From the NCBI GenBank assembly GCA_039929105.1, contig JBDSRX010000051.1, positions 1 to 45,849 on the forward strand: a stretch of DNA of 45,849 bases. Reading direction: 5' to 3'. The DNA is from Candidatus Dojkabacteria bacterium. Its GTDB lineage: Bacteria > Patescibacteriota > Dojkabacteria > J137. Positions 8,691 through 14,884 of the stretch are shown here, in pieces (the stretch's first letter is position 1; each line of letters begins with the position of its first letter). The notes below the pieces were generated by a model. It was not told the DNA's origin, ran no database searches, and was given only the letters and a program-made list of their open reading frames with translations. The position numbers and the translations under genes were made by a program.

Positions 8691-9746
8691 TTATCCTTCA
8701 TTCGCAGCATTCTTGGCAGCATAAACATAAAACTTATGTTTATAATGTTGCTTCTTGTCCCATGAAGGAATTTTTATATCAGTACCTTCGTATAGAATTA
8801 GTTTGCCATCAACTACAAAATAATAATGAGTTTCTCCATTCTTTTTGCAAAGCATTAATGTTCCAGGCATACTTTGAGGATAGAATAGTGTATCTGTAGA
8901 TCCTTCCTCCTCGTATTGTAATATTTTATTGCCAAATTTATCTCTTTTGAAAATTCTGAATTGACCATTAATTATAGTTTGGCTTTCCCAAGTTCTAATG
9001 TAGGGTTCATGGTAACCTCCTGGATAATCTTTAAGGTCTTGATCTTGTCCAGCTTCTACTTTCTCTTCGCCATTAATAATTCTTACTTCTGAGTTTAAGA
9101 TTTTCCAATTATTTCTAAAGAAACTTGTTAAATGATCTTCGGTTAACACTTCATTCTGTCTTGAAGATCCAGTAAAAACTATTAGTCCATCTTTCTCTAG
9201 TTTGTAAAGAGAATACATGATTGCATGATTTATTAGATTTCTACCAGTAGTTCCGTTTTCATTTGATTTAAAACCTGGATTGTTACTATGTGCTTCACTA
9301 ATAGTATTTGGGTTCATAGGTAAATTACCTATTATCAATTTATATCTATTATTGATTGGTAGGCTTGCAAATCCATCAGAAAGTATTGCTCTAATCCTCT
9401 CAGGGTCAAAACCATTTAATTCGATATTATGGTAAGCATTTTCAACAGCTGCGGGATTGTTGTCAACTAAATCAACTTCAATGTTATTTGCTAACTTATA
9501 TAAGTACAATCCTAAAATTCCAGTACCTGTGCCTAAGTCCAGTACTTTTGGGTCATTTTTAAAGAATTCTGGAGTAATAATTCCATGGCTCATAAGGAGA
9601 TTAATGAATTCCACTGCAGAAGAATTTCCTACATCCCAAACACCTGTCATAGAATCCACAAGAAGTTGACCATTCATTGTTTCGAATGATGTTTGCTTAG
9701 TGTCAGTTAGTAACGTCACATCTTTTGTTTCTATTAAATCGTTCAT
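8691..9746 (-). CDS. Class I SAM-dependent methyltransferase (HemK/PrmC/MTS-like) with unknown C-terminal extension
   Basis: VLDLGTGTGILG motif I, VDNNPAAVENA, SDGF, IIGNLP (NPPY-like motif IV). Confidence 0.8.
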   Translation of the reverse strand: MNDLIETKDVTLLTDTKQTSFETMNGQLLVDSMTGVWDVGNSSAVEFINLLMSHGIITPEFFKNDPKVLDLGTGTGILGLYLYKLANNIEVDLVDNNPAAVENAYHNIELNGFDPERIRAILSDGFASLPINNRYKLIIGNLPMNPNTISEAHSNNPGFKSNENGTTGRNLINHAIMYSLYKLEKDGLIVFTGSSRQNEVLTEDHLTSFFRNNWKILNSEVRIINGEEKVEAGQDQDLKDYPGGYHEPYIRTWESQTIINGQFRIFKRDKFGNKILQYEEEGSTDTLFYPQSMPGTLMLCKKNGETHYYFVVDGKLILYEGTDIKIPSWDKKQHYKHKFYVYAAKNAANEG

Positions 9747-10411: not shown

Positions 10412-11173
10412 TTACTTTAAGATATTCCAAAGTAAATCAAAAAGTATCGTTGAATTGATAGCAAGGCCTTCGTTTTTAATAACGATAGCAGAGATATTAT
10501 TGTTTTTTGTTGGCTGAATGATAGCTATACTATCTCTATAAATAAGATAGTCCATTGATTTTAGTTTTGAATTTTCAGGTAAAAACTTAAAATCAATACC
10601 TTTCATATTAGTGTAGGTATCCTCGAACAACTTTTGGTATTTGTCTTTAGAAACGATGTCTTGCATATAAAGCCCTTTTTTCATTGCTTCGGGAAATGAA
10701 TTGTAATTGTCTGGAAGTTTTTCCCAGATTTGTTCGGGACTTACATATGCTTTTATCGTAGGTGAAGTGAGAATATCATTGTATACTCTTTGAACTGCTC
10801 TTACTCCTTCGTAATATTTAACTTGAGAACTTGTATTTTCTTTTACTTTGTCTATCTCATCGTAAATACTTTCTATTACATTATTTAATCCTGATTCTTT
10901 TCTACTTATTGTGCTTTTCTCCTGTTCAATCAAATAGCTTATTTTTTCTGGAGGTTCTGCAATAATAGCTCTTTTGTTTCCTTTTTGAATTTGAGTTGCT
11001 AATCCACGTTCAATTAATGAGGAAATATTTAGATGAGTTGTTGCTCTATTAAGCTTAGCCTTTCTCGAAATATCTAAAACGCTAGAGGGTCCTAGTTGTA
11101 ATAGGGTGATGTAGACTAAGCTTTCGCTAGGACTAAGTCCATATTCTTGAAGAGAAATTAGTACTTTTTTCAT
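10412..11173 (-). CDS. TrmB-family wHTH transcriptional regulator (paralog 2)
   Basis: YGLSPSESLVYITLL.LG..SVLDISRKAKLNRATT, AEPPEKI, VKYYEG. Confidence 0.9.
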   Translation of the reverse strand: MKKVLISLQEYGLSPSESLVYITLLQLGPSSVLDISRKAKLNRATTHLNISSLIERGLATQIQKGNKRAIIAEPPEKISYLIEQEKSTISRKESGLNNVIESIYDEIDKVKENTSSQVKYYEGVRAVQRVYNDILTSPTIKAYVSPEQIWEKLPDNYNSFPEAMKKGLYMQDIVSKDKYQKLFEDTYTNMKGIDFKFLPENSKLKSMDYLIYRDSIAIIQPTKNNNISAIVIKNEGLAINSTILFDLLWNILK

Positions 11174-11447: not shown

Positions 11448-11717
11448 ATGTTTAATCCTACTATAGGTCAAAAAGTTAAAATATTTAGATATCGATCTGG
11501 AATGAGCCAGTTTGATCTAGAACTAGAAATTAATGCTTCTTCTGGAGTTATTTGTAGACTAGAGTCGGATAGAGTAAATCCAACTAAGGAAACATTATTT
11601 GCTATTTCTAAAGCATTAAAACTTACTGAAGTGGAGACTGCTTATCTTTTTGGAATAATAGAGAAAGAAAACATAAATATTATAGAACTGCAGTTTGGTA
11701 GAACTCTCCTAATTTAA
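11448..11717 (+). CDS. XRE/Cro-C1 family HTH regulator
   Basis: IGQKVKIFR..SGMSQFDL....ICRLE...NPTKETLFAISKAL. Confidence 0.88.
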   Translation: MFNPTIGQKVKIFRYRSGMSQFDLELEINASSGVICRLESDRVNPTKETLFAISKALKLTEVETAYLFGIIEKENINIIELQFGRTLLI

Positions 11718-13464
11718 AACCTCTTTTTCCGTAATATTCTCTTGTTCCTATTGCAGAAATAACAGCAAGGTTTGTAAATCCATGTTCTTTTACCATTTCT
11801 TTTGCTTTCTCAATTAGTTTAGTGCCTAGACCTAAGTGTTGAGCTTGACCAGATGATTCTTTACTTAATTCTAAGCTTGGACCATAAACATGAACTTCTC
11901 TTATCATTGCTGCATCATTAAGTTCTTCAGTTATTTTATTCGTTTTTTCTTTTGGTATTGAAAGTCTTAAAAACCCAGCGATCTCTCGTTGTTGCGTAAT
12001 ATATTGTAAGAAGTATTCCGTTGCTGTGTTCGTGTCATATTCGATTATATCTAAGTGTAAATCATCAAAGCTAACAACTTTATTCTTAATTTCTCTTGCT
12101 CTTATATTAGGATTTGCTCGACCATCTTTTTTTAATAAATGCTCAACAACTTCTCGTAAGTTTGTTGTTAAGTTTCCATCTTCAATTTCTGTAGAAGGTA
12201 TATCTCTAATAATTCTTGTAAGTCTATTATATTCTGGTGTTGCTTCCATCATATCGGCTAACAATGTTACAAGTTGTTGAGTTGTATAAGGTTGGTAAGA
12301 TCCTTCTGCCCATTTATCGTGTAATCCAGTATTTTTGATAATTGAAGTAGGATAGATCTTAAGTTCATCAGGTTTGTAGGCAGGATCGTTAAATAATTCG
12401 TGGTAAACTCTCAAATCTATTTCTGGGGTAGCACCGTAGAGGTTTGGCATCATATGTCCATGGATTTTAAATCCTGCAGATCTTAATAAATCAAAAGCTG
12501 CTGCAACTTGAGCTTTATTTTCACCTCTAACATTCATTCTACTAATCTCATCATCAAGTGTTTGGATCCCAACTTGAACTTTAGTAGCTCCTAACTTTCT
12601 CATCATTAATGTTTCTTTTGCAGAAATAACATCAGATCTAGTTTCTAGCACTAAACCAACGCACCTTACAATTCCATGCGAATTAATTTCTTGCTGTCTA
12701 AACAACTCTTCCCAAGAAACTTCAGATTCATCAACGATGTTTTTTGCAAATAATTCTTTATATTCTTTAGAGACAATAAGTTGGTTATATGGTTTATCTC
12801 CAATTCTTTCTCTCAATTCTTCGTTAATATCTAAAGTTAGTTCTTCTTTAATAGTGTGGTCGATTGTTTTATCATCAGTTTTATACTCATTTAATCCAAA
12901 GTCATTCATTGCTCTAAAGCATTCTTCTATAAACCAAAGTTTGTATTTTTCTGTGTAGTAGGACCAAGTTCCTCCAAGAATAAGTAATTCAATCTTTTCT
13001 AAAGGATGCCCTGTATTTTTGTAGGCTTGAAGTCTTCCATAGACTTGTAAATAAGGGCTAAATCTATTGAATAAAGCTCTTTGAGCACCTGGTTCGGTTG
13101 CAATGTAACTCTTAGGCATTCTTACGTCGTTAGGGCAGAATATGCAGTTTCCTGGGCAAGCGAAAGGTTTTGTTAATACTGTTACAGTTGTTACTCCAGA
13201 AATAGAACGAGTAGGTTTCATTTTAATTCGAGAGATCATTGTTCTTATTACAGATTCATCGAAATCTATAGAACTATCGTTTTCGATTAACCATTCAATG
13301 CCTCTAATAATTTGGTTTTTATTAAATACTTCGTTTCTGTCTTTTGGATATTGTCTAACTATTTTTTCGAACTTTTTCTTATTAAATTTAGGGAGGTTTA
13401 AGGTGTCTTCTAAAATTCCTTTTAGTTCTCTTTTATATATTGAAGGGTCGAAATTGTAGGGCAT
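11680..13464 (-). CDS. elp3: Elp3-family radical SAM/KAT tRNA U34 carboxymethyltransferase
   Basis: TRSISGV, CPGNCIFCP, PKSY..EPG, GGTW, ETR.D, KIYP, R.REI, IREVHVYG, QH.GLG, ISAIGTREYY. Confidence 0.95.
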   Translation of the reverse strand: MPYNFDPSIYKRELKGILEDTLNLPKFNKKKFEKIVRQYPKDRNEVFNKNQIIRGIEWLIENDSSIDFDESVIRTMISRIKMKPTRSISGVTTVTVLTKPFACPGNCIFCPNDVRMPKSYIATEPGAQRALFNRFSPYLQVYGRLQAYKNTGHPLEKIELLILGGTWSYYTEKYKLWFIEECFRAMNDFGLNEYKTDDKTIDHTIKEELTLDINEELRERIGDKPYNQLIVSKEYKELFAKNIVDESEVSWEELFRQQEINSHGIVRCVGLVLETRSDVISAKETLMMRKLGATKVQVGIQTLDDEISRMNVRGENKAQVAAAFDLLRSAGFKIHGHMMPNLYGATPEIDLRVYHELFNDPAYKPDELKIYPTSIIKNTGLHDKWAEGSYQPYTTQQLVTLLADMMEATPEYNRLTRIIRDIPSTEIEDGNLTTNLREVVEHLLKKDGRANPNIRAREIKNKVVSFDDLHLDIIEYDTNTATEYFLQYITQQREIAGFLRLSIPKEKTNKITEELNDAAMIREVHVYGPSLELSKESSGQAQHLGLGTKLIEKAKEMVKEHGFTNLAVISAIGTREYYGKRGFKLGEFYQTAVL

Positions 13465-13480
13465 AAATGAGATTATATCA
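13465..13480 (-). promoter_or_regulatory. Extended -10 (TGATATAAT) 7 nt before elp3 ATG; probable leaderless mRNA
   Basis: Reverse complement TGATATAAT-CTCATTT-ATG. Confidence 0.65.
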
Positions 13481-13536
13481 CGAGATACAAGCTTTACTTA
13501 TCACTGTTTAATAAGTTGAGGTTAATCTCTCAGATT

Positions 13537-14172
13537 CTATTCCACCCTATAATTAGAAAGTTGAGCAATTCTTGAGAACATTCCATCTAAATATTCAATC
13601 CACTCATTGTTTAATTGATTAGATTTTTTCCATTCAAATGCATTAGTAACTGCATGTTCTAAATCTTCAGCGATATTTGATTCGTCACTCAATTCCAAAT
13701 TAAAATTTTCTCTCAAAGTTTGCTCATAATCTGTCATTTGATCTAAAGGAATTATAGACATTACTCCAAGGTGTGCTGGTAAACCTTTATATTTTTCCCA
13801 TTCACCTAATTCATTTTCTTCTTCAATAGTTGTGTAAATAACATTTGCGGGATCTTCTTCATAATCAAGCTTATCATCATCTTTATCAGCAGTTGAACCT
13901 AGTAATTCTTTTTCTAAAGAATCTAAAAATGCCTTTGCAGTAGATTTTCTAAAATCACCTTTAATTATTATTTCTAATATCTGCCTAATTGTTAATCCAT
14001 CCTCTACCTCATGTTCAAGTCCAACTTCATCAACTGTATAAACTGACGCTAGTCCTACATCAATAGTATTCATAGAAATATCACTTGCATCAACATTATA
14101 TGTTTCTAAAATCCTGTTAGTTCTATCAATAACTTCTTGTTGATCAGGAGTAATATCTTGTTCTATAGGCAT
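13537..14172 (-). CDS. Hypothetical acidic protein
   Basis: 211-aa ORF with host-like codon use; no motif recognised. Confidence 0.7.
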   Translation of the reverse strand: MPIEQDITPDQQEVIDRTNRILETYNVDASDISMNTIDVGLASVYTVDEVGLEHEVEDGLTIRQILEIIIKGDFRKSTAKAFLDSLEKELLGSTADKDDDKLDYEEDPANVIYTTIEEENELGEWEKYKGLPAHLGVMSIIPLDQMTDYEQTLRENFNLELSDESNIAEDLEHAVTNAFEWKKSNQLNNEWIEYLDGMFSRIAQLSNYRVE

Positions 14173-14227
14173 AATTTCTTGGTAATAATTACATTGTAGT
14201 ATAATCTTTATAAATTTTACTCTATAT

Positions 14228-14884
14228 ATGGATTTATATACAACTCACGCAAAAGAGTTCTCAAATACAAGACAATCTCCATGGGAAGGATGGAAAAGCG
14301 TTTTACGTTCTACGTATAACGTAAAACGTAACGCGTATAACGTCTTGGATCTAGGCTGTGGGAATGGTCGTTTTTTAAAGTATTTAAAAGATGAAGGTAT
14401 TAAAATTAGCAGATATGTTGGATTAGACAATTCTAAAATACTTTTAAACATTGCTAAAAAAGAAAATACAGAAGCAGAGTTCTTCGATCTAGACTTAAAT
14501 ACAATGGATTGGGCTAAGAAGATTAAAGGTGAATTTGATCTAATAGTTTCTTTTGGAGTAATGCATCACATTGAAAGTTTTCAACTTAGAAGAAATATTC
14601 TTGAATGTTCCTCTAATCTTGCTAAGAAAGATGCAACTTTAGCAATTGCTTACTGGCAATTTATGAATGATGAAAAATTAAAAGCAAAAGCACTTAAGCT
14701 AACTAGAGAAAACGACTATGAACTTCCCTTTGGACAAAATGGTGCAAAAAGATTTTGTCATTTTGTAAATGAGACTGAGGCTCTAAAGTTAGAAAGCGAA
14801 CTTTCCGTAAAGAGAGTAGATGCTTATTATGCAGATGGGAAATCGAAAGAGCTTAACTATTATGTAATTTACCATCCTTTGTGA
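14228..14884 (+). CDS. Trm9/ALKBH8-like SAM-dependent methyltransferase (putative tRNA carboxymethyluridine methyltransferase)
   Basis: Y...A..FS.TR..PW N-terminal motif, VLDLGCGNGR, VMHHI, RR..L, Y/VW, RFCH. Confidence 0.75.
   Translation: MDLYTTHAKEFSNTRQSPWEGWKSVLRSTYNVKRNAYNVLDLGCGNGRFLKYLKDEGIKISRYVGLDNSKILLNIAKKENTEAEFFDLDLNTMDWAKKIKGEFDLIVSFGVMHHIESFQLRRNILECSSNLAKKDATLAIAYWQFMNDEKLKAKALKLTRENDYELPFGQNGAKRFCHFVNETEALKLESELSVKRVDAYYADGKSKELNYYVIYHPL
14298..14346 (+). repeat. In-frame heptamer array x7 (GCGTTTT ACGTTCT ACGTATA ACGTAAA ACGTAAC GCGTATA ACGTCTT)
   Basis: CGT every 7 nt inside a CpG-poor CDS; encodes VLRSTYNVKRNAYNV. Confidence 0.85.

Follow-up and report, generated by a model that had tools for sequence, protein, structure and literature searches.

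Organization of the locus

Two divergent genes of Candidatus Dojkabacteria bacterium, elp3 and a gene for a Trm9-like methyltransferase, are described here as a candidate module for the modification of the tRNA wobble uridine (U34). They are located in the window, which is the whole of contig JBDSRX010000051.1 (contig C51) of assembly GCA_039929105.1, positions 1 to 45,849 of the forward strand (45,849 nucleotides). The genome comprises 1.11 Mb in 86 contigs, with an estimated completeness of 97.8%, a guanine plus cytosine (G+C) content of 31% and 3093 open reading frames (ORFs). The two genes are encoded as follows:

11680..13464, minus strand: elp3, a radical S-adenosylmethionine (SAM) plus GNAT tRNA uridine-34 enzyme of 594 amino acids (aa), assigned by TIGR01211, Pfam and alignment with 5l7j
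14228..14884, plus strand: Trm9-family class I SAM methyltransferase of 218 aa, a predicted tRNA (carboxymethyluridine-34-5-O)-methyltransferase, assigned by PDB matches, residues, reciprocity with ALKBH8 and linkage to elp3

The start codons of the two genes are 763 bp apart. An earlier interpretation drawn from the letters of this stretch (the sequence-only reading) had proposed an Elp3 plus Trm9-like wobble pathway. Both ORFs lie where it had placed them, and its separation of about 760 bp agrees with the measured distance, but a 211-aa ORF inside the gap had been missed.

The Elp3 enzyme

The window Elp3 matches NCBIfam TIGR01211 with 448.7 bits (cut-off 350) over residues 75-589. The Pfam models Radical_SAM (35.2 bits) and Radical_SAM_C (68.3 bits) are both above their cut-offs, and the GNAT models fall slightly below theirs (21 vs 23.6 and 19 vs 20.7). 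Formation of 5-carboxymethyluridine (cm5U) is established for archaeal and Dehalococcoides Elp3, and as a member of the same family the window enzyme is inferred to form cm5U34 on tRNA.

The closest solved relative is the Elp3 of Dehalococcoides mccartyi (DmcElp3, 5L7J; 1.3e-88). The alignment spans residues 83-203 and 258-589 of the window Elp3, whose three-cysteine cluster motif CPGNCIFCP faces CPGKCIYCP. Both enzymes are bacterial and stand-alone; the window Elp3 differs in having approximately 80 extra N-terminal residues and an insertion of approximately 55 residues (about 204-257). DmcElp3 has been called "a rare example of bacterial Elp3s" in PMC6367351. In Patescibacteria, Elp3 is not rare, being above the cut-off in 118 of 301 sampled species genomes.

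Kinship of the methyltransferase to Trm9 and ALKBH8

The question posed was whether the protein encoded at 14228-14884, METHYLTRANSFERASE, is a Trm9, and it was addressed through PDB searches, long proteins, reverse searches, residues, a tree and the fold. Pfam gives generic class I methyltransferase models alone, and no NCBIfam curated cut-off is reached. When the single sequence is searched against the PDB, the top match is Yarrowia Trm9 (5cm2_Z, 6.8e-7), narrowly above plantazolicin methyltransferases. With a profile of 51 homologues of the window methyltransferase (the A1 profile), 5cm2_Z is matched at 3.8e-19 and 72 bits over profile positions 25-226, nearly the whole domain, whereas the runner-up, 3dtn (62.6 bits), is matched in the SAM-binding half only.

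Among proteins of 495-2000 aa, the A1 profile retrieves one bacterial fusion first and then ALKBH8-type proteins with 76-108 bits, in which an RRM, an AlkB-type oxygenase and a methyltransferase are combined. The AlkB-type domain is present in nine of these, and five bear the name ALKBH8 in their source records; identity to the ALKBH8 domains is approximately 27-31%. All 120 eukaryotic Trm9/ALKBH8 proteins in a further set are matched by the profile, with 46.5 to 123.1 bits and a median of 101.1. In the reverse direction, five ALKBH8-type queries each find the window ORF as the best of the 3093 ORFs of the genome (30-44 bits; next at most 22.4). In both search directions, the window methyltransferase is therefore nearer to Trm9/ALKBH8 than to the other class I methyltransferases, by modest margins. 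The profile comparison (72 vs 62.6 bits for the best PDB chains, a eukaryotic median of 101 bits and first place for the window gene in ALKBH8 searches) bears out the kinship that the sequence-only reading had proposed.

A tree of 57 rows with nine outgroups, built without a known archaeal row and with row L023 left out, recovers a bacterial clade (support 95/79) and a eukaryotic Trm9/ALKBH8 clade (99/90). A library-wide profile search returned 2573 representatives at E<=1e-30; the 150 listed all belong to the bacterial family and are nameless, so they provide no Trm9 anchor. The closest database proteins are named Candidatus Dojkabacteria and Patescibacteria. Among 98 close homologues, the automatic annotation of JGI gives "TRM9" for eight, and NCBI describes them as class I SAM-dependent methyltransferases. 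CmoB and other U34 enzymes were considered as an identity and rejected, with CmoB far below its cut-off (19.6 vs 209).

The window protein shares with yeast Trm9-Trm112 (5CM2) and ALKBH8-TRMT112 the class I SAM fold type, and these are its closest PDB and named relatives. The common features are an N-terminal Y..F..TR..W helix, an HH pair, a W after strand 4, an R.(Y/C)H motif and a C-terminal N. Like them, it is placed downstream of Elp3, in its case by genomic linkage only. In contrast to them, it has only 218 aa, lacks the eukaryotic insertions, carries a Cys at the position of Y243 in the Saccharomyces cerevisiae enzyme (ScTrm9), is encoded next to elp3 and comes from a genome with no detectable Trm112 gene.

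Conservation of catalytic and substrate residues

The mutagenesis results reported for ScTrm9 in PMC4678810 (Létoquart et al. 2015) show a requirement for R29, D72, H116, W145, W168, R241, Y243 and N271, as well as a contribution from H115. In the same account, Y18 makes a modelled contact with the cm5U carboxylate and was not mutated. These residues were mapped onto the window protein through the Yarrowia numbering, with a chain offset of 35 that is consistent for R40, H126/H127, W156, W179 and R192, and a second time through alignment with ALKBH8 methyltransferase domains.

Counterparts are present for eight of these ten Trm9 residues: Y4, R15, D41, H113, H114, W143, R175 and N210. Each of the eight is conserved in 223-232 of 232 family proteins, and Y4, R15, H113, H114, W143 and R175 each in 229 to 232. 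The set to which binding of the carboxylate has been ascribed (R15, H114, R175 and Y4) and the set ascribed to the uracil ring (N210, H113 and W143) are both fully retained. The motifs quoted earlier as Trm9 hallmarks, YTTHAKEFSNTRQSPW, DLGCGNGR, VMHHI, LRRNIL, AYW and RFCHFVNETE, all occur in the translation; they do not reflect chance, given the conservation of the key residues and their alignment with ALKBH8 and Yarrowia Trm9.

Linkage and co-occurrence with elp3

Co-occurrence was examined in 301 Patescibacteria species genomes, the window genome included. Elp3 was found in 124 genomes at E<=1e-10, 118 of them above the cut-off; removal of the weak radical-SAM matches in G096, G118 and G247 (39-66 bits) leaves 121, with three partial or split genes retained. 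The A1 profile is bimodal across the sample, with 95 genomes at 119 bits or more, three degraded or split copies at 76-88 bits and all others at 65 bits or less. On this basis, Elp3 is present in 121 genomes and the methyltransferase in 98. Both occur in 92 genomes, Elp3 only in 29, the methyltransferase only in six and neither in 174. Five of the six methyltransferase-only genomes are below 90% complete, and one of the matches has two stop codons.

The two genes lie on the same contig in 80 of the 92 genomes with both, and within 5 kb in 78, all of which are divergent; in two genomes they are distant on one contig and in 12 they are on separate contigs. The matched stretches are at most 300 bp apart in 66 of the 80 same-contig pairs. 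The association anticipated from the window is borne out in the sample, with Elp3 in 92 of 98 methyltransferase genomes and divergent neighbours in 78 of 92. The pair recurs in many of the sampled families. Among the window genome and its 20 nearest relatives (n=21), 13 have both genes, one has Elp3 alone, seven have neither and none has the methyltransferase alone.

The pair extends beyond Patescibacteria. In a scan of GTDB species genomes, the best 80 loci are all bacterial, and 67 of them have Elp3 within 3.5 kb, divergent in 66. At least four of the 13 loci without Elp3 have almost no upstream DNA. The pair occurs in records of Chloroflexota, Acidobacteriota and Myxococcota, and the record titles among these 80 loci include Anaerolineales, Caldilineae, Thermoanaerobaculia, Ca. 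Multivorans, Polyangiales, Myxococcota, Spirochaetaceae and Fermentibacteria.

A sister family (f2; L097-L100, corresponding to G174, G237, G017 and G294, and 10 more genomes) has Elp3 above or near the cut-off in 14 of 14 genomes. No family-level Trm9-like match and no match to an AsnB-like query was found in these 14 genomes, and a nucleoside diphosphate kinase gene stands divergent from elp3.

Three members of the methyltransferase family carry a C-terminal WecG/TagA glycosyltransferase fusion: L013:672-2198 (G127), L014:700-2175 (G199) and P0237. The fusions in G127 and G199 are located away from elp3. All three proteins retain the full set of Trm9 residues, even with a Tyr at the Y243 position.

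The remainder of the proposed wobble pathway

The usual bacterial route to U34 modification at C5, MnmE-MnmG (with MnmC), leads to 5-(carboxy)methylaminomethyluridine, (c)mnm5U34. It has the target position, the codon boxes and MnmA thiolation in common with the pathway considered here, and differs in its chemistry and in its unrelated enzymes. MnmG has no match in the window genome, and the best match for MnmE there is only GTPase-level (20.6 bits vs a cut-off of 252.6). Across the sample, MnmG is present in 11 of 301 genomes, none with a true Elp3; as the sequence-only reading would predict, it is absent from the window genome and from all 121 Elp3 genomes. The proposal that the pair replaces MnmEG agrees with the absence of both proteins here, but goes too far, given that neither Elp3 nor MnmG is present in 169 of the 301 genomes and many of these bacteria thus manage without both.

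MnmA is present in the window genome (419 bits). The description of the pathway as eukaryote-like is appropriate for the C5 enzymes, which are of archaeal/eukaryotic type, but the pathway as a whole would be a hybrid because the thiolation enzyme is the bacterial MnmA.

The lack of a Trm112 gene, observed earlier for the window, extends to the entire 97.8%-complete genome, in which the Trm112p model PF03966 has no match at E<=1, that is, no homologue detectable with a short model. With its 40 positions, this model was matched at E<=0.01 in nine of the 14 control genomes, which means that it could overlook divergent versions. Among the 301 genomes, 12 have Trm112p above the cut-off, including four of the 98 methyltransferase carriers; these matches are mostly in frames of approximately 300 aa as opposed to small stand-alone genes. 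A two-copy complex prediction, bearing on self-association in place of Trm112, gave a score of 0.00 and a mark of 0.42, which amounts to "no answer".

ARAGORN identifies 35 tRNAs in the genome. Among them are U34 tRNAs for Lys, Glu, Gln, Arg(UCU), Gly(UCC) and Leu(UAA), and each of these is accompanied by its own C34 isoacceptor. Across the 478 ORFs with 250 codons or more, AGA accounts for 82% of Arg codons and GGA for 57% of Gly codons, with AAA at 75%, GAA at 79% and CAA at 84% of theirs. The preference for A-ending codons that had been noted for highly expressed genes is thus genome-wide, but it is expected in any case at 31% G+C.

A tRNA-Ile with the anticodon UAU is located outside the window, at G000:C54:33-108, and there are only two CAU tRNAs. 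No match to TilS was found in the window genome. AUA, which makes up 31% of Ile codons, is probably read by this U34 tRNA and not by a lysidine tRNA. In two other genomes, a weak Elp3-like radical-SAM match (63-66 bits) stands approximately 1 kb from mnmG (G096:C207:394-978 and G118:C50:8670-9395); these genes may be of the MnmL/YtqA type.

Proposed pathway and alternative explanations

From the family memberships, the kinship to Trm9, the genomic linkage and the absences described above, the enzymatic steps may be inferred as follows. Elp3 (11680-13464) would use radical-SAM chemistry and acetyl-CoA to place a carboxymethyl group on C5 of U34, forming cm5U. The methyltransferase (14228-14884), belonging to a bacterial branch of Trm9/ALKBH8, would then use SAM to methyl-esterify the carboxylate of cm5U34, giving 5-methoxycarbonylmethyluridine (mcm5U34). 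This step is proposed because the substrate-binding residues are conserved and the genes are linked, and it would most likely proceed without Trm112. As a bacterial MnmA is encoded in the genome, 2-thiolation of the U34 tRNAs for Lys, Glu and Gln would yield 5-methoxycarbonylmethyl-2-thiouridine (mcm5s2U34) as the end product. The outcome would be an archaeal/eukaryotic C5 branch joined to a bacterial thiolation branch in a genome without MnmE and MnmG. That the window holds a two-gene module of this kind is assigned a probability of about 0.75. The wobble pathway of the sequence-only reading is upheld in outline by the profile, co-occurrence and MnmG results, its enzymatic steps being predictions. 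The organism probably decodes with a wobble modification not yet credited to bacteria.

Several observations weigh against this pathway. The Y243 position of ScTrm9, where an alanine mutant is reported in PMC4678810 to lose approximately 90% of activity, is C177 in the window protein; across the 232 family proteins it is C in 185, A in 17, V in 13 and never Tyr. The W168 position is F168 in the window (W in 179, F in 53 of 232). A reverse profile of the 120 eukaryotic Trm9/ALKBH8 proteins gives the window ORF 75.7 bits and the next methyltransferase of the genome 59.3, a modest margin. In the tree, which contains nine outgroups and no known archaeal Trm9, the bacterial clade is joined to the eukaryotic one with low support (46/84), and a long-branch outgroup row falls within the joint group. 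The AlphaFold model of the methyltransferase is of high quality (predicted local distance difference test, pLDDT, 94.3), but Foldseek against the PDB retrieves dozens of class I methyltransferases at approximately 1e-12 and ranks 5cm2_Z sixth; with near-equal folds of this kind, the comparison has no discriminating power. The sampled genomes are mutually related, so the co-occurrence counts overstate independence. Elp3 is also not strictly dependent on the methyltransferase, as 29 of the 121 Elp3 genomes lack it, including all 14 of the sister family, which is of the same class. The WecG/TagA fusion is explained by no tRNA role. Moreover, a search of the literature found no bacterium in which mcm5U has been documented by biochemistry or mass spectrometry.

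The strongest competitor, itself unlikely, is that the methyltransferase acts on Elp3-modified tRNA with an unrecognised, non-homologous activating partner instead of Trm112 and would thus not be a stand-alone enzyme. The eukaryotic and Haloferax Trm9 enzymes are both described as requiring Trm112 (PMC4678810, PMC6144793), and a divergent Trm112 could be missed by the 40-position PF03966 model. Yet no conserved third gene accompanies the pair: the spacer genes differ between lineages, and the short distance in most pairs (at most 300 bp in 66 of 80) also speaks against such a partner, as does the scarcity of Trm112p among carriers (four of 98, mostly in frames of approximately 300 aa). It is considerably less probable that the enzyme tailors the Elp3 product in another manner, on a different acceptor atom or intermediate, with a final nucleoside other than mcm5U. 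The change from Tyr to Cys at the position of Y243, which is fixed throughout the bacterial family, and the separation of the bacterial from the eukaryotic clade would fit this explanation, but the retained carboxylate residues (R15, H114, R175 and Y4) and ring residues (N210, H113 and W143) argue for the ester.

Least probable of all is a substrate unrelated to tRNA, such as a small molecule, protein or glycopolymer, with elp3 and the methyltransferase merely having a divergent promoter region in common. The generic class I matches in Pfam and NCBIfam, none above an NCBIfam cut-off, and the non-specific fold search leave room for this explanation; the three glycosyltransferase fusions are its sole positive hints. 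Against it stands the divergent adjacency in 78 of the 92 Patescibacteria genomes with both genes, and likewise in 66 of the best 80 loci across several phyla. Both genes are gained and lost together among the relatives of the window genome, and Trm9-specific residues beyond the SAM site are conserved, including in the fusions themselves. The formation of mcm5U34 by Elp3 and a Trm9-type enzyme is therefore preferred to all three.

Known systems and significance

One known counterpart is archaeal. As documented in PMC6144793, Haloferax volcanii Trm9 makes mcm5U, detected by liquid chromatography-mass spectrometry, and Trm112 is required. Clustering of elp3 and trm9 has been noted for Sulfolobus solfataricus in both PMC6144793 and PMC5372719. 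The window resembles these archaeal systems in having an Elp3 without the other Elongator subunits of the Elp1-6 set, a Trm9 step and clustered genes. It differs in that the archaeal Trm9 described there needs Trm112, and in that its organism is a bacterium with a bacterial MnmA. According to a review (PMC5372719), no bacterial relatives of Trm112-dependent methyltransferases are detectable, and bacterial Trm9 is not mentioned in the searched passages of PMC13315578 (2026). No paper describing a bacterial Elp3-Trm9 pair was found in the full-text literature, with subscription journals outside reach. The pathway is known in eukaryotes and archaea; what is new here is the orphan ORF between the genes and a sister family with Elp3 but no methyltransferase.

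In contrast to the rarity or absence indicated by reviews, Elp3 is common in Patescibacteria and is almost always accompanied by a Trm9-type enzyme. If the proposed pathway is correct, mcm5U and mcm5s2U exist in bacteria and Trm9 can act without Trm112, which would provide a simple single-subunit model of an enzyme family linked to human disease. Consisting of two genes, the pair would also serve as a compact means of introducing mcm5U into heterologous hosts. Such a finding would be relevant to the history of the Elongator-type wobble pathway, which may be ancient or may have passed between domains.

The position divergent from elp3

A stand-alone AsnB-type PP-loop synthetase (PF00733) of approximately 270 aa is encoded beside elp3 in five of the 29 Elp3-only genomes. 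It abuts elp3 in four of them, and in G013 it is approximately 680 bp away, across one small ORF. The genes are:

L107:2822-3613 (G185): AsnB-type synthetase
L104:5834-6265 (G133): AsnB-type synthetase
G264:C4:36793-37497: AsnB-type synthetase
G235:C112:1145-1906: AsnB-type synthetase
G013:C11:14528-15262: AsnB-type synthetase

To our knowledge, the enzyme that amidates cm5U to 5-carbamoylmethyluridine (ncm5U) is still unknown in eukaryotes. The AsnB-type synthetase is a candidate for this activity. It may be postulated, tentatively and with less confidence than the two-gene pathway itself, that the gene position opposite bacterial elp3 acts as a "tailoring slot" and fixes the fate of cm5U34. 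In most carriers, a Trm112-independent Trm9 at this position would lead to mcm5U, or with MnmA to the chimeric mcm5s2U; in some genomes without Trm9, an AsnB-type enzyme there would lead to ncm5U. If so, the entire Elongator-dependent pathway would exist in bacteria in a simpler form, with single-subunit enzymes.

Orphan reading frame, spacers and neighbouring genes

The interval between the two genes contains the following features:

13465..13536, minus strand: spacer of 72 bp from the orphan ORF stop to the elp3 start, containing TGATATAAT
13465-13473: TGATATAAT, resembling an extended -10 element on direct reading of the sequence, with 8 nt between its end and the elp3 ATG
13537..14172, minus strand: orphan acidic ORF of 211 aa, co-directional with elp3
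14173..14227, no strand: divergent spacer of 55 bp from the orphan ORF start to the methyltransferase start, from the ORF coordinates

The divergent spacer between elp3 and the trm9-like gene is normally short, with a median of 146 bp between matched stretches in the Patescibacteria sample. In other wide spacers, the intervening gene is a PIN gene, a glucodextranase-like gene or an unknown ORF of 395 aa. The orphan ORF is assigned to no family by Pfam or NCBIfam, is unmatched in 20 related genomes (two of them of the same genus) and has no homologue in the spacers of seven other wide-spaced pairs. Its Atlas model has a pLDDT of 0.50 and is without a usable hit. On these grounds it was rejected as a partner of the methyltransferase. 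It is probably a strain-specific insertion and not a pathway component, and it may not be a real gene.

A promoter and terminator scan of 13300-14400 found four promoter-like sites, compared with a shuffle mean of 6.0, and thus no enrichment; TGATATAAT was not among the sites listed. By this reading alone, elp3 may retain its own promoter at this element, in which case almost no leader would be left.

Two further genes lie downstream of elp3 on the same strand. The more distant, at 8691-9746 (minus strand), encodes a protein of 351 aa whose N-terminal half is a HemK/PrmC/PrmA-like methyltransferase, below all curated cut-offs, and whose C-terminal 150 residues, approximately, are without a family. 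The nearer, at 10412-11173 (minus strand) and approximately 500 bp from elp3, encodes a TrmB-type helix-turn-helix transcriptional regulator of 253 aa.

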